Positions 24,677 to 40,041 are shown, counted from the first letter of the stretch. The stretch is DNA of 64,000 nucleotides from Acidobacteriota bacterium (GCA_011525365.1 WTGQ01000002.1:3745941-3809940); one strand, 5' to 3'. The notes: generated by a model not told the origin, from the sequence alone. Made by a program: numbers and translations.

Positions 24677-24868
24677 GTGGACGGCGTTATAGTCGGCGGT
24701 TGGGGATGGGTCGTCGCCGCCTATGCATCGGCCGGCGTGGCTCTCGCCTTCTACGTCTACAGCCTGTTGGTCCGCCGGCGGCGGATCGAGGCGAAGGCGC
24801 CCTTCCACGATCAGAGGCCCTCACAGGACCAGAGCAATGAGCACGGAACCGACGCCCCCGACGCCTGA
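24677..24868 (+). CDS. ccmD: Putative heme exporter protein CcmD
   Basis: 64-aa single-TM peptide (GGWGWVVAAYASAGVALAFYVYSLLVRRRR) resembling CcmD. GTG start. Not called as a separate ORF by the track. Confidence 0.45.
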   Translation: MDGVIVGGWGWVVAAYASAGVALAFYVYSLLVRRRRIEAKAPFHDQRPSQDQSNEHGTDAPDA

Positions 24869-25324
24869 CGCCGGACCCGCTCCCAGGACCCGGCGGCTTC
24901 TCCTGCTGGCCGCGGGCGGCATCGTCGCCGTGACGCTCTCGGTGCTGGCCTTCGGCGACGTCGGCGAAAACCTCGTCTACTACTGGAGTCCGTCGGAACT
25001 CCACGAGGCGGGCCCGGAAGCGGTCGGCGCCAGCATCCGGCTCGGCGGCCTCGTCGAAAAGGGCTCCGTGAACCGCAGCAACGACGGTCTGACCCTCGAG
25101 TTCAGGGTCACCGACGGGCAGTCGCAGGTCGACGTGCGCACGACCGCCGTTCCCCCGGCCATGTTCCGGGAGGGCATCGGCGTCGTCCTCGAAGGGACGA
25201 TGCGCGAGGACGGCCGGTTCGACACCGCGCGCCTGATGGTGAAGCACGACAACGAGTACCAGGCGCCGGACGTCAACGACCAGCGCAGCATGGAGGAGTT
25301 GATCGAGTCCATGCAGTTCGACAC

Positions 25325-25328
<4 letters not shown>
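24837..25328 (+). CDS. ccmE: Cytochrome c-type biogenesis heme chaperone CcmE
   Basis: TM anchor then OB-fold; C-terminal heme-binding HxxxY motif (VKHDNEYQAP). Confidence 0.8.
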
Positions 25329-27321
<1,993 letters not shown>

Positions 27322-27325
<4 letters not shown>

Positions 27326-27858
27326 ACCGCAAGGTCCTGCTCGTGGGCCTCGGCATCTCGCTGCCGCTGCTCGTGCTGCTCGGGTTCGCCTTCCGGCACG
27401 ACCCGCAGATCGTCGAGTCGCCGCTCGTCGGCAAGCCGGCGCCCAACTTCCGGCTCGCCGACCTCGACGGCAACGTCATCGACCTGGCGGAGCTGCGCGG
27501 CCGGCCGGTCATCGTCAACTTCTGGGCCACCTACTGCGTGCCCTGCCTGTACGAGCACCCGCTGTTCATGGAGGGCTCGAGGCGCTGGCAGGGCGAGATC
27601 CAGTTCCTCGGCGTGATCTTCCAGGACGACCCCGAGACGATCGCGCGGTTCAACGCCGACTACGGAAGCTGGGGACCGTCGCTGGTCGACGAGGGCGGCC
27701 GGGTCGCGATCGCCTACGGCGTCTACGGACCGCCGGAGACCTTCTTCATCGACCGCGACGGCGTGATCGTCGACAAGGCGATCGGTCAGGTATCGCCGAA
27801 TCAGCTCCTGGACGTCGCCAACCGCATGCTCGCGCAGCCCGCCGCGGCGACCGGCTGA
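27322..27858 (+). CDS. ccmG: Thiol:disulfide interchange protein CcmG/DsbE
   Basis: TM anchor then thioredoxin fold with WATYCVPC active site. ATG at 27322 overlaps the ccmF stop (ATGA). Confidence 0.85.
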
Positions 27859-27859
27859 C

Positions 27860-28408
27860 ATGCGACGCGTGACCGCCCTTCCGGGGCTGCTGGTGGCGTT
27901 GGCCTTCGCGGCACCGGCATCGGCCCAGGAACCCGACACGCCTCCGCGAGTCGCCCTGCCCCCGGCCGAGGGCGAGTACCGGCCGGGACTGGGGGTCGAG
28001 ACGTCCCACGAGCTGGGCGACCCGCTCGGCCGTCCCCTCTCCGGCGAGGAGCTCGACCTCGCGGTCGCCGAGGTCGCGGCCGACATCCGCTGCCCCAAGT
28101 GCCAGGCCCTCTCGATCGCCGACTCCGGCGCCGCCTCGGCGCAGGCGATGCGGGCGGAGGCCCGGTCGCTGCTGTCCCAGGGCTACACCCGCGAGCAGGT
28201 CGTCGGCTACTTCGAGCAGCGCTACGGCGAGTTCGTGCTGCTCGAGCCGCGGGCCCGCGGGCTCAACCTGATCGTCTGGGCGGCCCCCGCCGGGATCGTC
28301 CTGATCGGCGGCCTGCTGGTCGTCGTTCGGCTGCGGCAACGGCGGCGAAGCGCCGACGAAGGCCTGGACACGTACCTGCGACAGGTGGAGCAGGAGACGG
28401 CGACCTGA
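27860..28408 (+). CDS. ccmH: Cytochrome c-type biogenesis protein CcmH/NrfF
   Basis: Signal peptide, CPKCQ redox motif, C-terminal TM helix. Confidence 0.8.
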   Translation: MRRVTALPGLLVALAFAAPASAQEPDTPPRVALPPAEGEYRPGLGVETSHELGDPLGRPLSGEELDLAVAEVAADIRCPKCQALSIADSGAASAQAMRAEARSLLSQGYTREQVVGYFEQRYGEFVLLEPRARGLNLIVWAAPAGIVLIGGLLVVVRLRQRRRSADEGLDTYLRQVEQETAT

Positions 28409-29328
28409 CTGTCGTTGCGACGATCGCCCTCGTCGCCGCCGTCCTCGCCGGTCTGGGAGTCGGGTTCGCCTACCTGCCCCGAGAGGCCGCGGCGCGCGCG
28501 GCCGCGCTCGAGCTTCAGCGCGCCGACCTCCTGAACCGGCGCGAGGACCTGCTCGCCCGGCTCAAGCAGGAAGGCCTGGAGCCGGCCGACCGCCGCCGGC
28601 TCCAGGTTTCGACGGCGCGCGTGCTGAAGGAGCTCGACGAGGTCGAGGAGGCGATCGCGGGCATCGCCCCGGTCCGCGGAGCCCAACGGCGGGAAGCAGC
28701 GCCGGCCGGCCGCGCCTTCGTCCAGGCGCATCCCCTGCTCTCCGGCGTCCTGCTCGGCGGCGGCGTGGTCGGCCTGGTCGCCGCGCTGGTCATCTGGGCG
28801 CAGTCCGACGCCCAGCCCGATCCGCAGGCGGACCAGGCGATGGCACAGGGCGGCGGCGAGACGGACTTCCGCGGCCAGGAGCCGCTCCCGCCCGAGCTGG
28901 CTGCGCGAGCCGAGGAGCTCCGGCAACAGATCGACGCCGACCCCTCGGACCTCGACGCGATGCGCGCCCTGATGCAACTGATGCTCGCCAACGGCCGCGC
29001 CTTCGACGCCTTCCAGACGGCCCAACTCGCGCTGCAGACCGCTCCCGAGGACCCCGACGCGCACTTCGTTTCGGGCATCGTGCGCCTTCAGATGGGCCAG
29101 ACCCAGGTCGCCCTCGACGCCCTGGACCGGTCGCTCCGAAGCGACCCCGGCCACGAGCAGGCAGCCCTGATGCGGGGTCTCCTCCTGCTGCAGCTCGGCG
29201 ACCGCGACGGCGCCATCGCGACGTGGGAGAGCGCCAACGCCGCTCGCTCCAGCCCCCGCCTCGAGCAGGTCACCACAATGGCCCGCGAAGGCAAGACGTT
29301 CGACGAAATCGTCAACAATCCGCTCTAG
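28405..29328 (+). CDS. ccmI: Cytochrome c-type biogenesis protein CcmI (TM + TPR)
   Basis: TM helix (VVATIALVAAVLAGLGVGF) then TPR repeats. No canonical start codon near the ccmH stop; a CTG at 28405 or translational coupling is likely, so the start is uncertain. Confidence 0.55.
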   Translation: MTVVATIALVAAVLAGLGVGFAYLPREAAARAAALELQRADLLNRREDLLARLKQEGLEPADRRRLQVSTARVLKELDEVEEAIAGIAPVRGAQRREAAPAGRAFVQAHPLLSGVLLGGGVVGLVAALVIWAQSDAQPDPQADQAMAQGGGETDFRGQEPLPPELAARAEELRQQIDADPSDLDAMRALMQLMLANGRAFDAFQTAQLALQTAPEDPDAHFVSGIVRLQMGQTQVALDALDRSLRSDPGHEQAALMRGLLLLQLGDRDGAIATWESANAARSSPRLEQVTTMAREGKTFDEIVNNPL

Positions 29329-29340
29329 GAGCTTGCGCCG

Positions 29341-29841
29341 CTAAGCCAACCCCAGCCGCCGGACGATCTCCGCCGCGACATCCCGCTTCCGTTCGGTCCC
29401 CCGAGTGCGGACCCTCAGGTCCGCCTGCCGGTACGAATCGAGCCGGCTCTCGTACAGCGCCCGCGCCTGGCCCGGAGACTCGAACAGCGGCCGGCGCCTG
29501 TGGGACTGCTGGGCGCGCCGGCAAAGAGCTTCCCACGGCGGGTCGAGCCAGACGCTGGTGCCCAGCTCGGCGATCAGGCGGCGATTCCGCTCCAGAGTGA
29601 AGACGCCGCCGCCGGTGGCGATCACTGCCTGGTCGATGGAGGCGCAGCGTTCCAGGGCCGCCGTTTCGCGTTCACGGAAGTAGCTCTCACCGCGTTCGAC
29701 GATCAGGTCGGCCACCGGCTGCCCCTCGTGCTCGGCGATGGCCGAGTCGAGGTCCAGGAAGATCCAGCCCAGCGACCGGGCCAGCCGCCGGCCGATCCGG
29801 CTCTTGCCGGCCGCCATGAAGCCGACGAGGAAGACGCGCAT
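29341..29841 (-). CDS. aroK: Shikimate kinase
   Basis: MRVFLVGFMAAGKSRIGR Walker A and typical AroK length (166 aa). Confidence 0.85.
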   Translation of the reverse strand: MRVFLVGFMAAGKSRIGRRLARSLGWIFLDLDSAIAEHEGQPVADLIVERGESYFRERETAALERCASIDQAVIATGGGVFTLERNRRLIAELGTSVWLDPPWEALCRRAQQSHRRRPLFESPGQARALYESRLDSYRQADLRVRTRGTERKRDVAAEIVRRLGLA

Positions 29842-29857
29842 GGCGATGCCGAAACGG

Positions 29858-29974
29858 TCAGTCGCTGTGCTTCTGCGCCCGCTCGCTCCTGAGCGCCCGC
29901 ACCAGGAAGATCGTGAAGCCGCCCCACACGAAGCCGCCGATGAGAATCAGGACGAGGATGGCGAGCGGAGACAT
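29858..29974 (-). CDS. Very small membrane protein (38 aa)
   Basis: ATG...TGA ORF read manually: MSPLAILVLILIGGFVWGGFTIFLVRALRSERAQKHSD. A single TM helix with a positive C-terminus. Falls below the ORF-track size cut-off. Confidence 0.3.
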   Translation of the reverse strand: MSPLAILVLILIGGFVWGGFTIFLVRALRSERAQKHSD

Positions 29975-29995
29975 TCGGGTGAACCTTACGACAAG

Positions 29996-30700
29996 TCAGT
30001 CGGAGGCGCGACGCTGACGCCGCCTTTGCTGGGACAGGTTGAAGCTCACGATGATCCGGTCGGCTTTCCTGCCCCTGGCCCTGGATCGATTCGGAGCCAC
30101 GCCGTGGTACAGCCAGGCGGGGAAGATCAGCATCCTTCCGGCCCGGGGTCGGTAGCGCACCTTCTTCCAGCAGTCTCGCGGCCGCCTGACGCCGGGGATG
30201 TACTTGACCGAACCCATCAGGTTCTGCGTCCGCGGATCGATGAACTCGATCCGGCCCGAGTTCTTCGGCGCCTGGACGTAGTAAACGCCGCTCCAGATGC
30301 AACCGGGATGGATGTGGGCCCGGTTCAGGCCGCCGGGCGGATTGACGATCGACCACATGGTGCCGATGTTCAACCGATAGGACCGGTGATAACCGAGTTC
30401 ACGGCACATCATCTCCGCGGCGTTGTCGACGTGTTCGACCAGTCCCGCGAACGCGGCGTCCCTGTGCAGCTTGACGTGGCTGTGCCACCCCCCGAGCTCC
30501 GGAAGGTTCGACCTGCTCACGCCCGTTCCGTCGCGCTCCCGTTCGGTGTAGATCGCCTCGATCAGGCCGTGATTCAGAAGCTCGCTGTCCGGGATGTCCA
30601 GGGAAAAGATGAGCGTCGGAAAGTATCGGGCCACCTTCAGGGAAACCTCGGACGGACCAGCCGCCGCGCCGCCGTCCGAGGTTTCACCGTCAGGCGGCAA
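29996..30700 (-). CDS. 2OG-Fe(II) oxygenase superfamily protein (TIGR02466/PF13759-like)
   Basis: Conserved core WSIVNPPGGLNRAHIHPGCIWSGVYYV...IEFIDPR...LIFPAWLYHGV with the HxD...H iron-binding arrangement. True start may be the downstream GTG (VARYFPT). Confidence 0.7.
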   Translation of the reverse strand: MPPDGETSDGGAAAGPSEVSLKVARYFPTLIFSLDIPDSELLNHGLIEAIYTERERDGTGVSRSNLPELGGWHSHVKLHRDAAFAGLVEHVDNAAEMMCRELGYHRSYRLNIGTMWSIVNPPGGLNRAHIHPGCIWSGVYYVQAPKNSGRIEFIDPRTQNLMGSVKYIPGVRRPRDCWKKVRYRPRAGRMLIFPAWLYHGVAPNRSRARGRKADRIIVSFNLSQQRRRQRRASD

Positions 30701-30726
30701 GTTCTGCCTTCGGCGCCCTGCGCGCC

Positions 30727-31090
30727 CTAGTCGTCGTCCTCGTCGTCGTCCTCGTCGTCGTCATCCTCGTCGTCGTCATCCTCGTCGCCTTCGTCGTCCT
30801 CATCCCCTTCGTCGCCTTCGTCATCCTCGTCGCCTTCGTCGTCCTCGTCACCCTCGTCGTCCTCGTCGCCTTCGTCGTCCTCGTCGCCTTCGTCGTCCTC
30901 GTCGCCTTCGTCGTCCTCGTCGCCCTCGTCGTCCTCGTCATCCTCGTCGCCCTCGTCGTCCTCGTCACCCTCGTCCCCCTCGTCGCCTTCGTCGTCCTCG
31001 TCACCTTCGTCGTCCTCGTCACCCTCGTCGTCCTCGTCGCCTTCGTCGTCCTCGTCGTCCTCGTCACCCTCGTCACCCTCGTCATCGTCG
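30727..31090. repeat. Tandem 18-nt (and sub-unit 9-nt) coding repeat gtcgtcctcgtcgccttc xN
   Basis: Directly visible in the sequence; it encodes the acidic tail of the lipoprotein on the minus strand and produces an RRP-rich shadow ORF on the plus strand. Confidence 0.8.
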
Positions 31091-31536
31091 CTCGCGGAGA
31101 CGAAACCGATTCCCGTGCCGTCGATGCCCTCAAGGATCTCCTTGCTCAAGGTGCCTTCAGCATCCTCGTTGGTGCTCTCCACGCCCTCAAGCTCGCTCTT
31201 TCCCGGGAGCGTGGATGACAACCTGACCCCGGCTGTCTCCGAGGCGGACTCCAGGTCGACTCCGGTATCGTCCATGAAGACGCGCAACCGCGGCCGCTCG
31301 CCCGGGACGTCGACGTCGCCATCCCGGTCGCCATCGCCATCGCCGTTGGCGCCCTCGCTTTCGGGCGCTTTCTCCACAGCGAACTTGGGCGCCGTGGGAA
31401 GCAGCGGGTCGCCATCCTCGCTGCAGCCGGCGGCGACGAAGCAGGCGCCGAGAAGCAGCACCAGCGTCCGGGCCCACAGCGACGTGATGATCAGACCGGG
31501 GCCGCTGACAAAGGCCCGGGGATTCTCCGGATTCAT
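30727..31536 (-). CDS. Lipoprotein with extremely acidic (DEG)n C-terminal tail
   Basis: Lipobox LLLGACFVAAGCSED after a signal peptide. The last ~120 aa are almost pure D/E/G repeats (DEDDEGDEDDEGDE...). Confidence 0.6.
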   Translation of the reverse strand: MNPENPRAFVSGPGLIITSLWARTLVLLLGACFVAAGCSEDGDPLLPTAPKFAVEKAPESEGANGDGDGDRDGDVDVPGERPRLRVFMDDTGVDLESASETAGVRLSSTLPGKSELEGVESTNEDAEGTLSKEILEGIDGTGIGFVSASDDDEGDEGDEDDEDDEGDEDDEGDEDDEGDEDDEGDEGDEGDEDDEGDEDDEDDEGDEDDEGDEDDEGDEDDEGDEDDEGDEDDEGDEDDEGDEGDEDDEGDEDDDDEDDDDEDDDEDDD

Positions 31537-31597
31537 GGCGCGACCTCCACCGTCTTGATGGCAGAAGGAAACTCTCAGCAGGCTAACACGGCGCGCG

Positions 31598-32728
31598 CTA
31601 CCGCGAACACCTGAAGGCCTGCGTATCGCTCCTGGTGGACGCAGTCACTCCCTGCACGTTGTCGTGCTTCCACGTCGTGCCGTCCGGAGCCGTCACCAGG
31701 AGCTTGAACTCCAGCGTCGTGACCGGCGCGACGAAGACCCAGCGGTGACCGTTCCGTGAGCAACCGTCGAGGACCTTGACCAGGACTTCCGCGTTGTCTC
31801 GATTGAAGAACCAAAGCAATCCGGATTCCCCCGAGGCCCAGATGCCGCTCTTCGCCTGGCCCACCCGGCCGTCGGGCGTGCGGTAACACATGCTGACCTC
31901 GTAACCACCCTCGAACTGAAGCAGCATCGTGGTCGGCGTGCAGTCCTCGGCCGGAAGAGGCGTGGTTGCCTCGTGGTCCACGCCCAGGCGCATGAAGTAC
32001 GCGGTAGCCACCGACTCGGCGTTCCATGAACTCCACGGGCTTTCGGAGGAGGATCGGTACCGCCAGAAGTTCCTCGTACCGCCCGGCCCATTGCGATCCT
32101 CGGCGAACCCTTTGCCACTCGAGTTCGACCACTGAACACCCAGCCACACATCGCCGCCATCGAGCCGCTGCGAAGTGATCTCGCCACGGTTGATCAAGCC
32201 GCACGTACCCCGCCCTCTCGCCAAACCGGAAATGGTGGCCGAGTACGCGGCCAACGGAGTGCCGGGCCGCCCACCGGAGTCACGGTAGAACGTCAGGACG
32301 AACGTCACGTCTGCATTGTCGTCGTCCGGCTCACGACCAAAGCACGCCGTCACGGATGTGACGATGCCCGCGCGAGGCAAGCGGAATCGCTGCGCGTACT
32401 CCTGTTCATGCGCGCCGGTGATGCGGGTAAACGCCTCGGGGGTGCCGTCGTCGTAGCTGTACTCCGTCGAGGCCGGCGACACGATCCCGGTCAGGTCCGA
32501 CGCCACGTCAGCAATCCACCCGTCGCCTGGGTCAACCAGAATCGAGTCGACGTCCTCCTTGCCGGCGGCATCCATGTCCAGGACATGCCCACCGTAGATA
32601 CGGACCGACGTCCCCGCCAACGAACCGTCTGCACTCTGAGCCGCCAGAGGCGACGAAAGAGCCAGGCTCAGCGTCACCAGGGTCCCAAGGCAGTTGCTTC
32701 CTTTCCTTCGAACGGAGCTACTGTTCAC
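31598..32728 (-). CDS. Secreted protein of unknown function with C-terminal Cys domain shared with the LRR-metalloprotease
   Basis: Signal peptide (LVTLSLALSSPLAAQ). The C-terminal ~110 aa (CTPTTMLLQFEGGYEVSMCY...SGLLWFFNRDNAEVLVKVLDGCSRNGHRWVFVAPVTTLEFKLLV) aligns with both tandem domains of the 1282-aa protein. Confidence 0.65.
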   Translation of the reverse strand: MNSSSVRRKGSNCLGTLVTLSLALSSPLAAQSADGSLAGTSVRIYGGHVLDMDAAGKEDVDSILVDPGDGWIADVASDLTGIVSPASTEYSYDDGTPEAFTRITGAHEQEYAQRFRLPRAGIVTSVTACFGREPDDDNADVTFVLTFYRDSGGRPGTPLAAYSATISGLARGRGTCGLINRGEITSQRLDGGDVWLGVQWSNSSGKGFAEDRNGPGGTRNFWRYRSSSESPWSSWNAESVATAYFMRLGVDHEATTPLPAEDCTPTTMLLQFEGGYEVSMCYRTPDGRVGQAKSGIWASGESGLLWFFNRDNAEVLVKVLDGCSRNGHRWVFVAPVTTLEFKLLVTAPDGTTWKHDNVQGVTASTRSDTQAFRCSR

Positions 32729-32781
32729 GCCGCTTCTCCTTTCGTTCTCTTCGCGAGCCCGGCTGCCGGACGATTCTTCCT

Positions 32782-34449
32782 TTACTTGCGATCCTCGGTC
32801 CGAATCAACCGTGCCTGCGCTTCCGCCGCGGCCAGAACGACCGCCGACTCCGTGGCGTTCGCGTCGTAGTAGCCGACGAAGCGGTTAGTTTCGAAGGCGT
32901 CGTAGTCGGCCAGGTTGCGGGCCCAGCGATAGCCGATCGTCTGGAACAGGAGGCGGGCCGACACGGTGACGGCCGTGACCCCGGCGGCAACCGGGAAGCG
33001 GTAGCGAACCGTGTCGTTGCCGGCCACGAAGTCCGGGTCGCCGGCAGCCGCTCCGAGTACCGCCACGTCGCCGGGCGCCGACGCCTTGTCGAAGCCGTCC
33101 GGCAGCAGGCGGTTGTCCTTCGCGTAGCGGACACCCCGCAGCAGCGCCGTCGTCACCCGGTCCGCGTGGTCGACGATGATCGACTCGTAGATCTGGACCT
33201 GATCGGGCCCCGAGATCTCGGCATGGTGCGGCTCGAAGGCGCCCGGGTCGGCGTCGTTGTCGTTGCCGGCGATCGACCCGTCCGGCCGCATCGCCCCCGA
33301 CTCGAAGAGAACGCCGCCGTTCTGGTCGCGGACCGTCAGGTGGAGCCAGGCCCGGCGCGACGGGTAGGCGGTCGGCAGCTTGTGGCCGGCGAGGTTCCGG
33401 ACCTCGACGTCGACGACGACTTCGCCGGGCTCGAGACGCAGATCGATACGGTCGATCTTCGCCGTGTCGTTGCGGAGGTGCTCGGCCGTCCGCGCAGCCG
33501 ACGCTTCGAGTTCGTCGGACGGCGCCGTCACGTTCAGTTCGTCCCGGTACCGGTTGAGCAGGCGCAGCATGAAGGCGTTGCCGCCGCGGAAAGCGTGAAG
33601 CGAGAGTCCCTCCCGCTGCTCGCCCAGCACCGACGAGATCGGCGCCTCCGCCGCCACCGGCATGTGGCAGTCCTGGCAGCTCTGGTCGCCGCGGTAGCCG
33701 CTGTTGAGCCACTCGAGGTACGGCACCTGCTCGGGCAGCCGGCCGACCTCACGGCCCTCCTCGTCGAGGGCGGTCGTGAACAGGGTGTGGCAGGTGGCGC
33801 AGAGCTCCGACTCCTGGATATGCGCGCCGGCCGCGGGCTGGAAGCCGGAGGCGGACTCCATGATCCGCTGCAGCCCCTCGTCGAGATCGTCGAAGGGTCC
33901 GAAGGCGGTCGCCACGCCCGCCTCGGGGCCGCCGACGAGAAAGCCGCCGTCGAAGCTCTCGTGCTCGCCCAGGTTGTCCGGGCGGATCTGGTGGCAGACG
34001 GTGCAGGAAACGCCGTCGAGCGCGGCCGCCACGTCCGGTCCCACTGCGGCATCCGGGCCCAGATGCGCGAAGACCTCGCCGAGCCCGCCCGCGGCCTTCG
34101 CCGCCGTCCTCGCCATCGGCATGTGACAGGTGGAACAGGTGTCCTCGATCGCCGCCTGACGTTCCGGCTGATCCATCACTTCGCGCCGGACCGCCGCCTG
34201 CCAGTAGGGATCGCGTGCCGAGTTGGCCATCATCGTCGCCCGCCAGGCGTGACCGATCGAGACGTCCTGGCCGTCCGCGTCCGTCAGGTTGCTGTGACAG
34301 GCGATGCACTGGTCCGACGTCTCGAACACGGGCGCCGCAGCAGGCGCCGGACCCTGCGCAATCGCCACGGACGACACGAAGAGCCCGAGAAGCGCCGGCG
34401 CCAGCCGGCGGCCCGCGAGGCGCGCGCGGAACCGAACGTCACCAGCCAT
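32782..34449 (-). CDS. Secreted pentaheme c-type cytochrome
   Basis: Signal peptide and five CxxCH motifs (CIACH, CSTCH, CTVCH, CATCH, CQDCH) in 555 aa. Confidence 0.8.
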   Translation of the reverse strand: MAGDVRFRARLAGRRLAPALLGLFVSSVAIAQGPAPAAAPVFETSDQCIACHSNLTDADGQDVSIGHAWRATMMANSARDPYWQAAVRREVMDQPERQAAIEDTCSTCHMPMARTAAKAAGGLGEVFAHLGPDAAVGPDVAAALDGVSCTVCHQIRPDNLGEHESFDGGFLVGGPEAGVATAFGPFDDLDEGLQRIMESASGFQPAAGAHIQESELCATCHTLFTTALDEEGREVGRLPEQVPYLEWLNSGYRGDQSCQDCHMPVAAEAPISSVLGEQREGLSLHAFRGGNAFMLRLLNRYRDELNVTAPSDELEASAARTAEHLRNDTAKIDRIDLRLEPGEVVVDVEVRNLAGHKLPTAYPSRRAWLHLTVRDQNGGVLFESGAMRPDGSIAGNDNDADPGAFEPHHAEISGPDQVQIYESIIVDHADRVTTALLRGVRYAKDNRLLPDGFDKASAPGDVAVLGAAAGDPDFVAGNDTVRYRFPVAAGVTAVTVSARLLFQTIGYRWARNLADYDAFETNRFVGYYDANATESAVVLAAAEAQARLIRTEDRK

Positions 34450-35548
34450 CCAGGAACCCTCCGTCGAACCAGTCCCAGAGCAGGTAGACGACGGCCTGCA
34501 CGCCGCGGTCCTCGTCGTCGTCGAGAGGAAAGCGGACGCCCGCGTTCAGCAGGATGTGCTGCCGGGTGTTCAGGCTCACCTGCACCTGCGGCGCGAGGTC
34601 GACCTCGACCGACGCCCCCGAGGCCAGGCCGCGCTCCGCCAGGATTTCGAGCATCGGCGTCCACGCCCGGCCGAACTCGCCTTCGGTCCAGGTGCGCCCG
34701 ATCGTCATCCGCAGTTCCGCCTTGTCGCCGGCGTCGCCGTCCACCGCGATCTCGCCCAGGGCCTGGAACTGGAGGAAGGCGTCGCCGGGGAGGAGATGCC
34801 CGTAGGCCGCGTACGGTTCGAACACGGTGACGCGATCGTCGGAGCCGTCGTCGCCCTCCGTCCGCACCAGCACCGCCTCGGCCCCCAGGCTGAAGATCGA
34901 GCCGCGCCGCAGGTCGTGGTGAACGGTGTGCTTGTAGCCGAGCGCCAGGTCGCCCAGGTCGAAGCCGCTCCCGGCGTCGCCGTGTTCGACCGGGACCGCC
35001 ACCTCGATCATCCCCCGCGGGCCGAACCGCTTCTCGTACAGGAACTCCGTCTCCGTGCCGCCGCCGCCGTCCGTGTCGGCGAGCACCGTCACGACGATCT
35101 CGTCCTCGGGGAACGCCTTCTCGGTGAACAGCGGCCGGGGCAGATTGAACTCGCCCCGGGGCCAGGCGTCGTTGACGCAGAACGTCCGCACGTGACGGAG
35201 AATCGAGAAGATCTCCGCTTCGCCCAGCTTGGCCCCGAACGCCGGCATCATCCGGTCGAAGGCCCGGACGGGGCCGCCTTCGTGGATCACGGCGTACCAG
35301 TCGGGGTCCGGCTCCCGCGAGGCGAACTCGCAGTCGGTGAAGTCGGGGAGCGGGGTCTCGAAGCCGACTTCCCGCTGCGGCCGGCCCCGGCCGTCGTCGC
35401 CGTGGCAGGCGGCGCAGGCGCGGGTGTAGAGGTCCGCGTCGCTCGCCGGCTGGGCCAGGGCCGCCGCCGGCAGCAGCAGGGACAGGACCGCGACAAACCG
35501 GGAAAGCGCTTCCAAGTAGCGCTCAGCGTAGCAGCGCGACCCGCGCAC
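34439..35548 (-). CDS. Monoheme cytochrome c domain fused to a C-terminal acidic domain ending in W (possible beta-barrel/OM-associated)
   Basis: GTG start right after the thiE stop. Signal-like segment LSRFVAVLSLLLPAAALAQ, CAACH heme motif, then a ~250-aa D/E/G-rich domain ending ...FDGGFLDGW. The stop overlaps the start of the pentaheme cytochrome gene by 11 nt. Confidence 0.6.
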   Translation of the reverse strand: MRGSRCYAERYLEALSRFVAVLSLLLPAAALAQPASDADLYTRACAACHGDDGRGRPQREVGFETPLPDFTDCEFASREPDPDWYAVIHEGGPVRAFDRMMPAFGAKLGEAEIFSILRHVRTFCVNDAWPRGEFNLPRPLFTEKAFPEDEIVVTVLADTDGGGGTETEFLYEKRFGPRGMIEVAVPVEHGDAGSGFDLGDLALGYKHTVHHDLRRGSIFSLGAEAVLVRTEGDDGSDDRVTVFEPYAAYGHLLPGDAFLQFQALGEIAVDGDAGDKAELRMTIGRTWTEGEFGRAWTPMLEILAERGLASGASVEVDLAPQVQVSLNTRQHILLNAGVRFPLDDDEDRGVQAVVYLLWDWFDGGFLDGW

Positions 35549-35556
35549 CCAGCGGT

Positions 35557-36255
35557 CTAGGCGAGCGCTCGCAGCAGACGCCGGCAGGAGGCGGCGAGAT
35601 CCCCGGGATCGAGTGCCGAGACGACCGCCACCGCGTCGGCCCCGGCCTCGATGACCCGCGGGGCGCGGTCCGCGTCGATGCCGCCGATCCCGATCAGGGG
35701 CTTCGATGTGACCTCTCTGGCTTCGGCAACGCCGGCGAGCCCGACCACCGGGTCGGGGCGTTCCTTCGTCGTCGTCCCGAACACCGGGCCGATGGCCAGC
35801 GCGTCGACGGCGGCGTCGCCGTCCGCCTCCTCGGCCTGCGCGCGGCCGTGCGTCGAGCGGCCGATGGGACATGCGGGAGGAACCGACCGCCGCGCCGCCG
35901 CGGGCGGCAGGTCGTCCTGGCCGAGATGGAGACCGACGCGAAGACCAACGCGCGGGCCACTCGCCAGAAGCGCCGCCGCGATCACGGCGTTGTCGTTGAT
36001 CCACAGCAGCGGCGCGTCCTCTTCACGGTCCGCGCCCGAGGCCTCCCCGAACACCCGCCCCACCGCATCGGCCAGCCCCCACGCGGCGAGCTCCGGCAAC
36101 CCCTTCGCGCGAAGCTGAATCCAGCGCGCGCCGCAGTCGAGCAAGATGCGAACCGCGGACGTCACGGTCGCCGGTTCGGAGCCGAAGAAGCCCGTATCGA
36201 CGATCGCGTAGAGGCGGTTCGCCGGCGGCCGGAACCCAGGTCGGCGAACGCTCAC
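35557..36255 (-). CDS. thiE: Thiamine-phosphate synthase
   Basis: YAIVDTG...IQLRAKG...GASGADR (TMP-TENI family). GTG at 36255 overlaps the accC stop (GTGA); the ORF-track N-terminal 113 aa is shadow. Confidence 0.75.
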   Translation of the reverse strand: MSVRRPGFRPPANRLYAIVDTGFFGSEPATVTSAVRILLDCGARWIQLRAKGLPELAAWGLADAVGRVFGEASGADREEDAPLLWINDNAVIAAALLASGPRVGLRVGLHLGQDDLPPAAARRSVPPACPIGRSTHGRAQAEEADGDAAVDALAIGPVFGTTTKERPDPVVGLAGVAEAREVTSKPLIGIGGIDADRAPRVIEAGADAVAVVSALDPGDLAASCRRLLRALA

Positions 36256-37627
36256 GCCTCTCCCTCCTGTTCCAGCCGATCGAGGAAGCCGGTGTCCACC
36301 TCGGCCTCCGCGAAAAGCCGCGACTCGACGATCCTGCGCATCAGCGGCAGCGTGGTGCGGATGCCGTCGACCTCGAACTCCCGAAGCGCCCTGGCCATCC
36401 TCGATACCGCCTCGGCGCGGTCCTTGCCGTAGGCGACCACCTTGGCCAGCAGCGAGTCGTAGTGCGGCGGCATGCCGCCTCCTTCGAAACCGTGACTGTC
36501 GACCCGGACGCCGGGGCCCGCGGGCGGCCGGTAGCGGCGCAACGTGCCCGGCGACGGCGCGAAGGTCTCCGGATCCTCGGCGTTGATCCGGCATTCGATC
36601 GCGTGGCCCGAGGTCTCGATGCCGTCAGGAAGTCCCAGCGGCTCGCCTGCCGCGGCGACGATCTGGAGCTTGACCAGGTCGACACCCGTCACCGCCTCGG
36701 TGACCGGATGCTCGACCTGGATGCGCGTGTTCATCTCGAGGAAGTAAAAGCGGTCGCCATCGACCAGGAACTCGACCGTTCCCGCGTTGGAGTAGGCGAC
36801 CCGCCTGGCAAGCCTGAGCGCCGCGTCGGCCAGCGACCGGCGGAGTTCGGAGCTGATCGAGGGCGCCGGAGCTTCCTCCAGCAGCTTCTGGTGCCGGCGC
36901 TGGATCGAACAGTCGCGTTCGCCGAACTGCAACGCGCGGCCGAACGAATCGCCGAAGACCTGCACCTCGATGTGGCGCGGCCGCTCGACCAGGCGCTCCA
37001 GCATGAGTTCGCCGCTGCCAAAGGCCGCCCGGGCCTCGCTCGCGGCGGCGTCCAGGGCCGCTTCGAGGCCGGTCTCGTCGCGAACCGCCCTCATGCCGCG
37101 GCCTCCGCCTCCCGCCGCGGCCTTCAGCATGAGCGGATAACCGACATCCCTGGCCAGCGCCAGCGTCTCCTCGAGCGAAGCCGGCGCCGGGCCGCCCGGC
37201 AGTACGGGCACGTCGGCCTCGATCGCGGCTTCGCGCGCTCTCCTCTTGTCCCCCAGGGTACGGATCGCGGACGGCGACGGTCCGATCCAGGTCAGGCCGC
37301 AACGCTCGACGGCATCGGCGAAGTCCGCATTCTCGGCCAGGAACCCGTACCCCGGATGAACCGCCTGCGCGCCGGTGATGCTCGCCGCGGCGAGCAGGTT
37401 CTGCTGGTGAAGGTAGCTCGCCGCGGGCGCCGGCGGACCGACACAGACGGCCGCGTCCGCCAGGCGCACGTGCAGCGCGTCCCGGTCGGCGGTGCTGAAG
37501 ACCGCGACCGTTTCGATGTCGAGATCGCGGCAGGCGCGAATGACGCGGACGGCGATCTCGCCTCGGTTCGCGACCAGGATCTTCCGGAACGGCCGCGCGG
37601 CGCTCGCCTCTCCCGGCAGCGCGGTCT

Positions 37628-37631
<4 letters not shown>
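36252..37631 (-). CDS. accC: Acetyl-CoA carboxylase biotin carboxylase subunit
   Basis: KILVANRGEIAVRVIRACRDL..., ATP-grasp and biotin carboxylase C-terminal motifs. TTG start at 37631 overlaps the accB stop. Confidence 0.9.
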
Positions 37632-38087
<456 letters not shown>

Positions 38088-38101
<14 letters not shown>

Positions 38102-38309
38102 GGTCCGGCACCTCCCGGGCGCGGATTGTAGCCCGCGGCGGGAGCACTCCCAGACGCTCGAGTGCCTCGCGGGCCCGCCGGCTGGCCGGGTCGGCCGAAA
38201 GCACGCGCTGGAAGATCGCGATTGCCTCCCTCCGGTGGCCCTGAGCCAGGTACAACTCGCCGATCGTCACCGTCGGCTTCGGCGAAGTCGGGCGCTCCCC
38301 GGCAGCCAC
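38088..38309 (-). CDS. Possible small TPR-like protein upstream of accB
   Basis: GTG-initiated 74-aa product ending in one TPR-like helix-turn-helix (IGELYLAQGHRREAIAIFQRVLSADPASRRAREAL). High GC3 supports coding but the start is uncertain; it could be leader sequence. Confidence 0.25.
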
Positions 38310-38320
38310 GCTCCGGCGGC

Positions 38321-39253
38321 CTACTGGCCCGTGACCTGGACGAACTTCGTCACCTCGTCGGACCCCAGCGAGTTCGTGGCCCGGAAGGTGACCGCGTAGG
38401 TGCCCGGCTCGTCGTACGTGTGCGTCGGGTTCTGGCGCGTGCTCGTGTTGCCGTCGCCGAATGACCACAGCCAGCTCGTGGTGCGGCCGTCCGTCGTGTC
38501 CTCGAAGGCGACCAGCAGATTGCGGGTGTTGAACGTGAAGTCGGCCCGCGGCAATCGCTGAATCGCTACGCTGACGTTCGTCGTAACGAGCTGGCCGGCG
38601 CCGCTGCCCACGTCCACGCCGATCTCGAAGCTGTCGCCCGACACCGTGTCGAGATCGCCGGAGGTGACGACGAGCCGGTCCGACGCCGTGCCGTCCGCGG
38701 CCGTGGAGATCAGCCCGCCGCCCGAGTCGAGCGTGCCGATCTCCGTCCGGAAGTTGACCTCCGCCTTCTCGAGCGGCTGGCCGCGGTCGTCACGCACGAT
38801 CGCCAGCAGATCGGCCTCGCCACCGGTCTCGGGCACGCTGTTCGGCGTCACCTGCACGGTGACCGAAGCCGGCGACAGGCCGAGCTGTACGTCGATCGTC
38901 GCGGTCTCGGAACCGCCGGTGTTGGCCGACACGGTGGCGACACCGAACTGGCCGTCGGCCTCCAGCATCGCCAACGCTTCTCCCCGGTCGTCGACGCCGA
39001 CACTGGGCGGAATCGAGCCAAGCGTCGTCGTAAGGCGGATCAGGGTGCCGCGGCTGACCGGCGTTCCGTTCGGCCTGAGCGCGACGACCCGGATCTCGGC
39101 GCTCCCGTCCGACGGGATGCGGTCCGGATTCGCACTGATCGTGATCAGGGTCCCCGACGGGGCCACCGGACTCGTCTTGTCGCACGCCGCGAAGACCGCC
39201 AGCAACAGGCTGGCGGCCATGGCGGCTGGCAGGAATCGGCGCCGTGTGTCCAT
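38321..39253 (-). CDS. Lipoprotein with bacterial Ig-like (Big) domains and C-terminal PKD domain
   Basis: Lipobox LLLAVFAACD. Ig-like repeats (VTVQVTPNSVPETGGEADLLAIVRDDRGQPLEKAEVNF). PKD signature WLWSFGDGNTSTRQNPTHTYDEPGTYAVTFRATNSLG. Confidence 0.7.
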   Translation of the reverse strand: MDTRRRFLPAAMAASLLLAVFAACDKTSPVAPSGTLITISANPDRIPSDGSAEIRVVALRPNGTPVSRGTLIRLTTTLGSIPPSVGVDDRGEALAMLEADGQFGVATVSANTGGSETATIDVQLGLSPASVTVQVTPNSVPETGGEADLLAIVRDDRGQPLEKAEVNFRTEIGTLDSGGGLISTAADGTASDRLVVTSGDLDTVSGDSFEIGVDVGSGAGQLVTTNVSVAIQRLPRADFTFNTRNLLVAFEDTTDGRTTSWLWSFGDGNTSTRQNPTHTYDEPGTYAVTFRATNSLGSDEVTKFVQVTGQ

Positions 39254-39290
39254 CTCTCGAATCAGTATACGAACGCTGCCGGAAGAGCGT

Positions 39291-39962
39291 CTATTCGCTC
39301 GGGGTCCGTCCGGCGCCGACCCAGATGAGTCTGGTCACTTCGTCAGATCCCACCGAGTTGCCAGCCCGCAGCGTGACCGCGTAGTAGCCCGGCTCCGGGA
39401 AGGTGTGGGCCGGACTCTGGCGCGTGCTCGTGGCGCCGTCTCCGAAGTCCCACTGTCTGCTCGTCACCCGACCCGCGGAAACATCCCTGAAGGCGACCAG
39501 CAGGCCGCCGGGGCTGTACTTGAAGGCAGCGTCCGGCTGACGCTGGATGCGGACGGCGACGTCCTCCGTCACCAGTTGTCTGCCGCCGGAGCCGACCGCC
39601 GCCGACAACCAGAACCTGTTCTCCTCCACCGTGGCAAGTTCAGCAGCGGTCACGGTGAGCCGATCGGTGACGCCACCGTCCGGTCCGGTTGTGACCAACC
39701 GTCCTCCGGAGCCGAGCGAACCGGTCTGGGTGAGGAAGTTCACCCTCGCGTTCTCCAGCGGCCGCCCGTGATCGTCGCGCACGAGGGCGAACAGCTCGAC
39801 CTCCCCGCCGCTCTCCGGCACGCTGCTCGGCGTCACCTGGACTGTCACCGACCCGGCCGCAGCTTCCACGTCCTGGGCAAGAGCCGGCGCCACCGCAACG
39901 CCAGGCAGCACCGCGCCCACAATCGCTACCAGAACCAGGTGTGTTCGACGAGTTCCGATCAT
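39291..39962 (-). CDS. Secreted Big/PKD-domain protein (paralog of the preceding gene)
   Basis: Signal peptide and the same Ig-like motif (VTVQVTPSSVPESGGEVELFALVRDDHGRPLENARVNF), then PKD (QWDFGDGATSTRQSPAHTFPEPGYYAVTLRAGNSVG). Confidence 0.7.
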   Translation of the reverse strand: MIGTRRTHLVLVAIVGAVLPGVAVAPALAQDVEAAAGSVTVQVTPSSVPESGGEVELFALVRDDHGRPLENARVNFLTQTGSLGSGGRLVTTGPDGGVTDRLTVTAAELATVEENRFWLSAAVGSGGRQLVTEDVAVRIQRQPDAAFKYSPGGLLVAFRDVSAGRVTSRQWDFGDGATSTRQSPAHTFPEPGYYAVTLRAGNSVGSDEVTRLIWVGAGRTPSE

Positions 39963-40041
39963 CTCGTTCCCTCCTTGATCTCGTTTCCGACCGTCAAGGA
40001 TCTCTACGGAACGCCGCGGATTGGCGTCTACTGGCCAGCAC

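Follow-up and report, generated by a model that had tools for sequence, protein, structure and literature searches.

Cyc2 fusions and porin–cytochrome complexes are the main genetic markers from which extracellular and outer membrane redox metabolism is inferred in genomes. To our knowledge, Cyc2 is the only described precedent for the fusion of a cytochrome to a barrel, and within the fold class of pentaheme cytochrome c552 and MccSep we know of an activity for MccSep alone. In the MccSep enzyme, a loop of the Ig domain brings the catalytic residue to haem 2 (bioRxiv 10.1101/2025.11.18.688581). Among outer membrane channels, the lumen of COG4313 barrels is occluded by an N-terminal segment (PMC4493636), and the plug of FapF is joined to a domain in the periplasm (PMC5557850).

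Here, we describe a locus from an Acidobacteriota bacterium (GCA_011525365.1 WTGQ01000002.1:3745941-3809940), at positions 29,341–36,255 of a 64,000-nt stretch of DNA that is referred to below as the window. It contains an uncharacterized and very widespread pair of genes, encoding a cytochrome–barrel fusion and a pentaheme neighbour, which is not a member of the Cyc2, Mtr or MccSep systems. An earlier note on this DNA had remarked that no operon of this composition was known; indeed no described system matches the cytochrome pair, and a literature search found no description of a cytochrome/barrel–pentaheme pair.

Genetic organization of the locus

All of the genes listed in the earlier note were found on the minus strand at the positions it had assigned to them. 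The accBC genes and thiE (35557–36201, start approximate; PF02581, E 6e-37) lie upstream of the cytochrome fusion gene, and aroK (29341–29841; PF01202, E 5.7e-40) marks the downstream end of the cluster. These are housekeeping neighbours, and among 87 related loci the synteny of thiE and aroK is confined to L008–L010. Between them lie five co-directional genes, for the fusion protein, the pentaheme cytochrome, a secreted Cys-domain protein, a hyper-acidic lipoprotein and a 2OG-Fe(II) oxygenase, which are spaced at −11 to 61 nt, with 154 nt before aroK; the spacing between thiE and the fusion gene downstream of it is equally tight. There is no terminator-like site at any gene boundary of the cluster, and a promoter and terminator scan of positions 29000–38600 gave nothing above shuffled expectation. 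Rfam gave no match in 28000–40000, and hence no TPP riboswitch precedes thiE. As detailed below, the region sets side by side, between housekeeping genes, two modules of two genes each, which are conserved independently of one another, and a single lineage-specific gene, and these do not form one operon-level machine.

Conservation and distribution of the cytochrome pair

The fusion and pentaheme genes are adjacent in 85 of the 87 related loci, which group into about 60 lineages at an identity of 85%; of the other two loci, one is a truncated contig and one is L086. The hosts belong to the Acidobacteriota, Gemmatimonadota, Gamma- and Alphaproteobacteria, Latescibacterota and Rhodothermales. 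Adjacency is kept at 34–35% identity of the barrel and survives in about 10 loci where the two genes are divergently oriented. In the window the monoheme reading frame runs 11 nt into the next gene, whose ATG is at 34449, just as had been noticed earlier, and an overlap of 7–17 nt is found in five of seven gene-called lineages. When the ORFs of the 87 loci were clustered all against all, no universal third partner emerged, each recurrent family being confined to one syntenic clade, and no further multiheme ORF was found near the pair in either the window or these loci.

At least 556 loci in species-representative genomes carry the pair, alongside thousands of metagenomic proteins. All of the named sources of cluster members are MAGs or metagenomes, and the family is labelled at source as ‘cytochrome c’, ‘mono/diheme cytochrome c family protein’ or ‘hypothetical protein’.

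The cytochrome c/outer membrane barrel fusion

The fusion gene (34439–35515 on the minus strand from a TTG start, or to 35548 from a GTG start) encodes a protein of 358 or 369 aa, respectively. It begins with a signal peptide (cleavage at ..AALA/QP), which is followed by a class-I cytochrome domain (PF13442, E 1.5e-6) with a CAACH haem motif and a MMPAFG Met loop, a motif pattern that indicates probable His/Met ligation of the haem. A single CXXCH is present in all 57 fusion sequences compared. Residues 118–139 form an invariant linker, WPRGEFNLPRPLFTEKAFPEDE, which is placed just before the first strand like the plug segment of COG4313 barrels. The earlier note had described the remainder as an acidic domain ending in ...LDGW, and this was confirmed (residues 125–358, pI 4.36, ending ...FLDGW); by prediction it is an outer membrane β-barrel and not a soluble, metal-binding domain.

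The AF2 model (mean pLDDT 80.5) has helices at residues 26–112 and 12–13 strands at residues 139–348. The best Foldseek matches to the barrel were FapF (E 1.8e-8), autotransporter β-domains and NanC/KdgM, the best of these being 12-stranded, and the C-terminal domain is accordingly predicted to be a 12-stranded outer membrane barrel of the COG4313/FapF type. PF13557 is matched by 43 of the 57 homologues (best E 1.5e-10); the window protein itself gave no match to it at E 0.1 or better in a Pfam search. The C-terminal residue is W in 55 of the 57. One face of the barrel strands carries polar, invariant residues, including seven conserved Glu/Asp, and whilst the domain is acidic overall, acidic and basic residues in the lumen are about balanced.

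More than 3900 homologues of the fusion were found, and full-length members of the barrel family are fused to the cytochrome. When the barrel domain by itself was used to look for unfused barrels, the ten shorter matches inspected all start inside the cytochrome domain and are therefore truncated fusions. Two other uses of such a barrel were considered. An autotransporter, with the cytochrome as a surface passenger, was rejected because electrons could not travel between a haem at the surface and the cell; the linker also has no predicted helical segment for the lumen. Secretion of the pentaheme protein in the manner of FapF was likewise rejected, since a 12-stranded barrel cannot let a haem-loaded cytochrome through.

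The pentaheme cytochrome

The second gene of the pair (32782–34449, minus strand) encodes a protein of 555 aa with a Sec signal peptide, a helical cap that holds five haems and a C-terminal β-sandwich. Exactly five CXXCH motifs were counted, in line with the pentaheme cytochrome of the earlier note, at positions 48, 105, 149, 217 and 258, and five are present in all 56 homologues. There is no Cys outside these motifs, and no CXXCK. In Foldseek the sole match with E <0.001 was to 5ze8, the structure of Thermochromatium tepidum c552 (E 5e-12, TMt 0.60). HMM alignments of the protein to 5ze8 (E 4e-4, whole sequence) and to 9wt8, MccSep, span the β-sandwich loop and show that its conserved His-x-x-Pro is present. 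The protein is a periplasmic cytochrome of the c552/ExtKL–MccSep (PHC) fold; the match to NF040886 (ExtKL) is weak, at 34.3 bits against a cut-off of 250, and AF2 models the haem cap with low confidence (pLDDT about 45–75).

About 110 positions (~20%) are invariant across phyla, many of them non-haem positions in the β-sandwich, and they persist in members at 49–52% identity. They include the β-sandwich loop NLAGHKLPTAYPSRRAW. Tyr362 aligns to Sec325 of MccSep and is flanked by Lys357, Arg365 and Arg366; it is conserved in at least 90% of the 56 homologues and is kept in all five sequences of an alignment of distant members.

The acidic lipoprotein, its oxygenase and the Cys-domain protein

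The hyper-acidic lipoprotein (30727–31536, minus strand) was recognized by its lipobox, LLGAC, and its composition. The acidic tail that the earlier note had pointed out has 102 D/E and no K/R in its last 120 aa, follows the pattern (DEGDEx)n and is encoded by about 20 tandem copies of an 18-bp unit at 30731–31083. The neighbouring gene (29996–30700, minus strand) encodes a 2OG-Fe(II) oxygenase, whose assignment to TIGR02466 holds well (E 4.9e-59, 199.5 bits against a cut-off of 62.5), with PF13759 also matched (E 4e-23, 82.1 bits against 27). It has no signal peptide and is therefore cytoplasmic. The TIGR02466 family is widespread and is also found in cyanophages.

A (DEGDEx)n-type repeat lies beside TIGR02466 in seven further loci (L038, L042, L006, L094, L095, L098 and L099), and the two genes lie side by side in three different arrangements of order and orientation. 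In the relatives in L010 and L001 a PF05118 domain (Asp/Asn β-hydroxylase), fused to the acidic protein, stands where the oxygenase would be. Acidic lipoprotein and TIGR02466 oxygenase form a separate two-gene module, and this evidence supports a functional tie between them. Most likely, the oxygenase would modify this lipoprotein's acidic tract, β-hydroxylation of Asp or Asn being one example. This is the first contextual function prediction for TIGR02466, as a family that pairs with (DEGDEx)n proteins and is interchangeable with an Asp/Asn β-hydroxylase domain. Acid-rich ORFs of L018 and L020 were rejected as (DEGDEx)n proteins, since they look like TonB-dependent-receptor-type barrels with His/Glu-rich inserts.

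Between the two modules lies the gene for a secreted protein of 376 aa (31598–32728, minus strand), which has no Pfam match and ends in a four-Cys domain of about 115 aa. The earlier note had called this domain shared, and an HMM built from homologues found two more copies in the ORF at 8049–11897 on the minus strand (E 4e-15). Of its 316 homologues, all those with a named source come from an Acidobacteria, Acidobacteriota or Holophagales MAG; its C-terminal 30% recurs after CARDB, reprolysin-like, FN3 or LRR N-termini. Among the 87 loci its gene is found in L008–L010 only, and it is a lineage-specific insertion outside the cytochrome module.

It had been proposed in the earlier note that these five genes together form a single periplasmic or outer-surface oxidation module whose members are all exported or redox proteins. 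Their shared direction, close spacing and lack of terminator-like boundaries are consistent with this, as is the adjacency of acidic protein and oxygenase to the pair in the window clade, in the L001 and L038 clades and in L006. The oxygenase, however, is a redox enzyme of the cytoplasm and is not exported, and the tight spacing extends equally to thiE. Moreover, beyond the three closest relatives (at least 89% identity) it is the cytochrome pair alone that is kept, with about 55 of the 60 or so lineages having nothing but the pair, whereas the Cys-domain gene, thiE and aroK follow lineage synteny alone. Conversely, acidic protein and TIGR02466 oxygenase occur without the cytochromes in all of the roughly eight metagenome loci with usable flanks, including L094 and L099, with flanks of 10 kb. 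The five-gene model is largely refuted because the genes are not co-conserved, and we consider it highly unlikely; what survives is an outer membrane/periplasmic redox module of the two cytochromes. Some functional link between this and the acidic/oxygenase module is possible, the adjacency in 3–4 of about 60 lineages being above informal chance expectation.

A model for the cytochrome pair

The reading that we favour, and to which we would give about an even chance, is that the pair forms a periplasmic redox enzyme complex tethered to an outer membrane channel, beside which stands the separate acidic lipoprotein/oxygenase module. The pre-barrel segment of the fusion would run straight into the periplasmic class-I cytochrome c, which may be positioned at the barrel's periplasmic mouth as a dedicated one-electron partner. 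The soluble, periplasmic pentaheme protein, probably translationally coupled to the fusion, would be the catalytic unit, with its active site at one haem and a contribution from the invariant β-sandwich loop GHKLPTAYPSRR; here Tyr362 would occupy the place of the catalytic selenocysteine of MccSep, with Lys357, Arg365 and Arg366 around it. The strongly conserved barrel would offer a route across the outer membrane for a small substrate or product, and could be gated via the connection between plug and cytochrome. The substrate could be a metal ion, a small organic compound with redox activity or a small inorganic species of N, S or Se. It counts against an enzyme that the pentaheme protein has not kept the catalytic residues of MccSep.

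We know of no function for T. tepidum c552, and therefore the pentaheme protein could be a pure electron carrier. Both proteins might then act as a non-catalytic relay, with the pentaheme as carrier or store and the barrel as anchor, feeding for example an outer membrane or extracellular acceptor. Relatives of the fold have been proposed to be nanowire-like carriers (PMC11976967). The pentaheme protein has neither the non-motif Cys nor the CXXCK that mark classical active-site haems, and a small barrel with a salt-bridged lumen could be an anchor alone. Electron carriers usually diverge quickly, however, and the invariant fifth of the pentaheme positions takes in a β-sandwich loop whose homologue in MccSep is the catalytic one; nor can a single haem at the periplasmic mouth span the outer membrane. 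A relay is rather improbable in our judgement.

Within the enzyme complex that we favour, a more specific proposal can be made tentatively: the pair may be a self-contained redox machine of the outer membrane that had gone unrecognized, a plug-gated channel of the COG4313 type, its plug wired to a c-type haem, that feeds or drains a pentaheme enzyme with a Tyr active site in a hidden lithotrophic or detoxifying reaction, in some lineages perhaps together with oxygenase-modified, metal-binding poly-acidic surface proteins. If this were true, abundant bacteria of soils and of sponges and corals that belong to groups regarded as heterotrophic (Acidobacteriota, Gemmatimonadota, Gammaproteobacteria and Latescibacterota) would be using an externally supplied substrate. 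The unusually strong conservation of the pair implies a specific chemistry, and its carriers, from at least five phyla, are dominant in soils and in sponge and coral microbiomes. Identification of the substrate would give a function to a large unannotated family, and a characterized pair would add a member to the c552/MccSep fold class and could reveal a redox-gated outer membrane channel. The pair represents a third design beside Cyc2 and the porin–cytochrome complexes, one that current annotation does not recognize.

Comparison with known systems

Cyc2, the Fe(II) oxidase of Acidithiobacillus, Zetaproteobacteria and Gallionellaceae, resembles the fusion in combining a signal peptide, a single c-type haem motif (one CXXCH) and a C-terminal outer membrane barrel in one polypeptide (PMC8406198). 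If the pair oxidized a metal in the manner of Cyc2, the barrel would admit Fe(II) or a different cation for oxidation by the fused haem, the pentaheme would be the acceptor towards the respiratory chain and, in some lineages, hydroxylated poly-acidic surface proteins would capture the oxidized metal. The seven conserved Glu/Asp of the polar strand face, the acidity of the domain and the recurrence of hyper-acidic secreted proteins next to the pair are all consistent with this; so is the rus operon of A. ferrooxidans, in which a cytochrome gene adjoins the barrel gene. Cyc2 is marked by the motifs PXFAR[Q/K][T/Y], 5 aa before CXXCH, and PXL, 4 aa after it (PMC8406198), but neither was found in any of the 57 fusion family members, and the window protein reads ...SDADLYTRACAACHGDDGRGRP. 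Cyc2 has 16 strands and at least 365 aa (mostly at least 400), against 12–13 in the AF2 model and 358–369 aa here, and its barrel is poorly conserved, unlike that of the fusion. Its haem sits in a short peptide, whereas the haem here is embedded in a complete class-I domain, which at about 90 aa is too large for a 12-stranded lumen, so that any oxidation would take place in the periplasm. The fusion also differs from Cyc2 in its obligate pentaheme partner gene. The balance of charges in the lumen, the invariant Arg/Arg/Lys loop of the pentaheme, which suggests an anionic or neutral ligand instead of a cation, and the restriction of the acidic partner to a few lineages also argue against this reading, which we consider unlikely.

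A porin–cytochrome conduit of the MtrAB, PioAB or Pcc kind is suggested by the adjacency of a barrel gene to a multiheme gene and by a weak Pfam match in the locus to MtrC/MtrF domain II/IV (27.7 bits, where the cut-off is 30). Known conduits have 20–26 strands (PMC8406198), and a 12-stranded barrel cannot sheath a multiheme cytochrome. The pentaheme protein is globular, with a cap-and-stem fold, and there is no lipoprotein surface cytochrome; such a conduit is barely conceivable. In the ptdAB genes of Alphaproteobacteria from oxygen-deficient zones (bioRxiv 10.1101/2023.11.21.568154), likened here by description only, a pentaheme with a C-terminal β-sandwich also adjoins a porin. The gene order is the reverse of that of the pair, the ptd porin is not described as haem-bearing, and none of the pair loci examined has ptdC–G, whose products are tetra- and decaheme proteins, a flavoprotein and a protein resembling ferric reductases.

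The barrel of the fusion shares its 12 strands with the COG4313/PF13557 channels (Pput2725, TcpY and SphA) and with FapF, and the segment before strand 1, conserved in the fusion, is the lumen plug in solved COG4313/FapF structures. The fusion differs from these in that its periplasmic domain is a cytochrome c, that the window protein falls below Pfam detection and that it has no link to hydrophobic-substrate catabolism or amyloid genes. The pentaheme protein has the five-haem helical cap and Ig-like β-sandwich of T. tepidum c552 (PDB 5ZE8, ‘PHC family’), and both carry an N-x-x-x-H-x-x-P-T-x-x-P loop; they differ in that identity is 17%, the pentaheme protein is about 120–170 residues longer (the 5ze8 chain having 385 residues in Foldseek and 435 in the sequence search) and the loop has Tyr where c552 has Ala. 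The MccSep/ExtKL polysulfide reductase of Geobacter (PDB 9WT8) is a distant relation of the same fold class. Sec325 of MccSep is replaced by Tyr in the pentaheme protein, the distal ligand of haem 2, Cys239, is absent, and most hosts of the pair fall in groups regarded as aerobic heterotrophs rather than sulfur reducers. In MccSep, too, a catalytic loop of the Ig-like domain reaches the haem pocket, and in Geobacter the enzyme is encoded near an outer membrane barrel gene (ExtI).

Conservation of the cytochrome pair

The genes from accB through aroK form a co-directional run on the minus strand (38101 down to 29341) in a region of ~70% G+C. The run comprises accB (37628–38101), accC (36252 to ~37616), thiE (35557 to ~36201), a gene encoding a monoheme cytochrome c fused to a predicted outer-membrane barrel (34439–35515/35548; the fusion), a 555-aa pentaheme cytochrome with five CXXCH motifs (32782–34449), a 376-aa secreted protein (31598–32728), a 269-aa lipoprotein (30727–31536), a TIGR02466 oxygenase (29996–30700) and aroK (29341–29841). 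An earlier note, made from sequence alone, had described this run; profile searches confirmed thiE, aroK, the class-I cytochrome c domain of the fusion and the oxygenase (199.5 bits, cut-off 62.5), and the 11-nt overlap that it reported between the fusion-gene stop and the pentaheme ATG is present. Two MAGs are the closest relatives, one labelled Vicinamibacteraceae (Plut_88883, 96%), the other Holophagales (SB0667_bin_1, 93%). Directly upstream of accB, two genes in tandem (38321–39253 and 39291–39962, minus strand) encode paralogous exported proteins that contain Big_1/Invasin_D3 and PKD domains. A gene cluster for System I cytochrome c maturation (24723–29328, plus strand), made up of ccmE, ccmF, ccmG (thioredoxin-like), ccmH and a ccmI-like gene with TPRs, is convergent with aroK; the pentaheme and fusion genes lie ~3.5 and ~5 kb away from it, respectively.

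Homologous loci (80 taken from species-representative genomes and 7 from assemblies), representing 60 lineages at 85% identity, were each searched with every protein of the region. The fusion and pentaheme genes were found to be adjacent in 85 of these 87 loci, the exceptions being L064, where the contig ends, and L086. Synteny of accBC, thiE, the gene for the Cys-domain protein (the 376-aa secreted protein) and aroK is confined to the three closest relatives (L008–L010), and the lipoprotein and oxygenase genes adjoin the pair in 3–4 of ~60 lineages. All-ORF clustering of the loci revealed no additional family common beyond single syntenic clades, and no other multiheme genes were found near the pair; the conserved unit is thus two genes. 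The earlier note had read five genes (both cytochromes, the Cys-domain protein, the acidic lipoprotein and the oxygenase) as a single redox module, a reading that is not supported because only the cytochrome pair is widely co-conserved, whilst the core of that proposed module is real and very widespread.

Record titles assign the pair to Acidobacteriota (Vicinamibacteria, Thermoanaerobaculia, Holophagales, Terriglobia), Gemmatimonadota, Gamma- and Alphaproteobacteria, Latescibacterota and Rhodothermales; implausible labels on a few records (Bifidobacteriaceae, Dehalococcoidia) are probably binning errors. The two genes are still together at 34–35% barrel identity (L088, L089). Stop/start overlaps of 11, 11, 17, 7 and 13 nt in five gene-called lineages, with short gaps in two, suggest translational coupling. 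The genes are divergent but adjacent in ~10 loci.

Several features are restricted to particular loci. The divergent subclade (52–54% identity; L047, L051, L054, L057, L059, L060, L062, L067, L078, L081) has a shared intergenic region between both cytochrome genes and no overlap, a useful place to seek a regulatory site. L086 (9944–11089) is the sole fully flanked locus in which no pentaheme gene adjoins the fusion gene. In one syntenic clade of ~15 loci (L021–L041), the genes directly upstream of the fusion gene encode a tandem pair of putative outer-membrane proteins (~270 aa each) and a protein of 149 aa, a trio kept within that clade only. One Gammaproteobacteria lineage (L018:13187–15406, L020:14654–16819) carries, 2–3.5 kb downstream of the pair, an ORF with long His/Glu/Asp-rich inserts (HEHEEHEHEDEH...) that resembles a TonB-dependent receptor by eye rather than by profile match.

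Predicted structure of the fusion

The fusion has more than 3900 homologues, those given a source name being annotated ‘c-type cytochrome’, ‘mono/diheme cytochrome c family protein’ or ‘hypothetical protein’. Their alignment has a mean column identity of 55% and ~100 invariant positions, conservation that is unusually high for an outer-membrane protein. The AlphaFold2 (AF2) model (mean pLDDT 80.5) consists of helices (residues 26–112), a non-helical linker (113–138) and 12–13 β-strands reaching the C-terminus, and Foldseek places it closest to outer-membrane barrels of 12 strands, namely FapF, autotransporter β-domains, NanC and KdgM. PF13557 (Phenol_MetA_deg, COG4313) is matched by 43 of 57 homologues; the window protein itself gives no match. 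A C-terminal Trp is present in 55 of the 57 sequences, and the strands have one hydrophobic face and an opposite face bearing invariant Glu, Arg, Gln, Asp and His. When only the barrel served as query, 527 representative clusters were recovered; full-length members carry the fusion, and the shorter matches inspected start inside the cytochrome domain. That domain contains CAACH and an ‘MMPAFG’ Met loop resembling those of cytochromes c6 and c552; by family precedent, its haem is expected to be His/Met-ligated and to have a high potential.

In the solved COG4313 channel the lumen is occluded by the segment preceding strand 1 (PMC4493636), and in FapF this plug is attached to a periplasmic domain, which controls opening (PMC5557850). 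In the equivalent position of the fusion stands the invariant WPRGEFNLPRPLFTEKAFPEDE linker, which runs straight into the cytochrome c.

A proposed catalytic role for the pentaheme

At least 8000 pentaheme homologues were found, all named ones being ‘hypothetical protein’. Each of the 56 aligned members has exactly five CXXCH motifs and lacks any further conserved Cys. The AF2 model has a confident β-sandwich (~330–547) and a low-confidence helical cap, as expected for a model without haems. In the PDB, Foldseek gave a single match with E < 0.001, to the pentaheme cytochrome c552 from Thermochromatium tepidum (5ze8, E 5e-12, TMt 0.60); a structure-based proposal groups c552 with ExtKL and GSU2801 in a ‘PHC family’ (PMC11976967). 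A profile search aligned the loop NLAGHKLPTAYPSRRAW with the corresponding loops of 5ze8 and MccSep (9wt8), a Geobacter polysulfide reductase whose active site comprises Sec325, located on this very Ig-domain loop, and Cys239, the distal ligand of haem 2 (bioRxiv 10.1101/2025.11.18.688581). In the window family Sec325 corresponds to Tyr362, which has invariant His356, Lys357, Arg365 and Arg366 around it, and there is no candidate Cys ligand in place of Cys239. These loop residues and the β-sandwich motifs GNDNDxD, FEPH and KDNRLLPxGFDK are kept in the distant members aligned (49–52% identity), the truncated L088 sequence ending before the last motif. This pattern seems more in keeping with an enzyme that performs another chemistry than with a generic carrier, and a role purely in electron carriage is quite improbable.

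The reading that we favour, at about an even chance, is that the pair forms a channel-coupled redox enzyme complex tethered at the outer membrane. The pentaheme would be catalytic, the fused cytochrome c would serve as its dedicated redox partner, and the conserved, probably plugged barrel would provide passage for a small substrate or product.

Neighbouring modules

The acidic lipoprotein and the TIGR02466/PF13759 oxygenase constitute a unit of their own, apart from the cytochromes. The lipoprotein tail (102 of 120 residues D/E) corresponds to ~20 tandem copies of an 18-bp unit (30731–31083); tail length differs greatly among relatives, in proteins of 269 to 727 aa, so the array is probably unstable. 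Secreted proteins with such (DEGDEx)n tracts stand directly beside close TIGR02466 relatives (73–81% identity) in three different arrangements of gene order and orientation, in the window clade (29996–31536), L038 (12890–15346) and L042, L006 (10742–14423) and the metagenome loci L094, L095, L098 and L099. In L010 (8285–10468; an 89% relative) and L001/L011 (L001:10915–12894; 82%), the homologous lipoprotein has no TIGR02466 neighbour; an Asp/Asn β-hydroxylase domain (PF05118, E 3e-18) is instead fused to its C-terminal end. Two different oxygenase families thus occur at the same place by the same kind of acidic tract, from which we infer that this tract is what the oxygenase modifies; the obvious candidate reaction is Asp or Asn β-hydroxylation. 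Given the few lineages in which this unit adjoins the cytochrome pair, and the pair's absence from all of ~8 TIGR02466 loci with usable flanks, the link between them is loose; their proximity looks more frequent than chance and is clearly not obligatory.

The ‘shared Cys domain’ of the earlier note is real: it is a four-Cys domain of ~115 aa with no Pfam model, C-terminal in the 376-aa protein (31598–31963), and a homologue-built HMM finds two more copies (aa 219–317 and 346–445) in a 1282-aa ORF (8049–11897). The 376-aa protein has 316 homologues, all source names given being Acidobacteria/Acidobacteriota/Holophagales MAGs, and it behaves as a lineage-specific module. The domain is appended C-terminally to unrelated N-termini (CARDB, reprolysin-like, FN3, LRR, sulfatase-maturase-like) and may therefore have a sorting or anchoring role.

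Comparison with known systems

In the published literature we found no description of a cytochrome c–COG4313 fusion or of the pair. The concept of a cytochrome–barrel fusion is common to Cyc2; a Cyc2-like reading, in which the fusion would be a metal oxidase, is unlikely, as the signature motifs, strand number and length of Cyc2 are not matched. Barrels of 20–26 strands are required in conduits of the Mtr and Pcc types, whereas 12–13 are predicted for the fusion. In Alphaproteobacteria of oxygen-deficient zones, ptdAB encode a β-sandwich pentaheme beside a porin, with no assigned function (bioRxiv 10.1101/2023.11.21.568154). The remaining ptd genes are absent around the window-type pair, and ptdAB, judged by their description, are its nearest published context.
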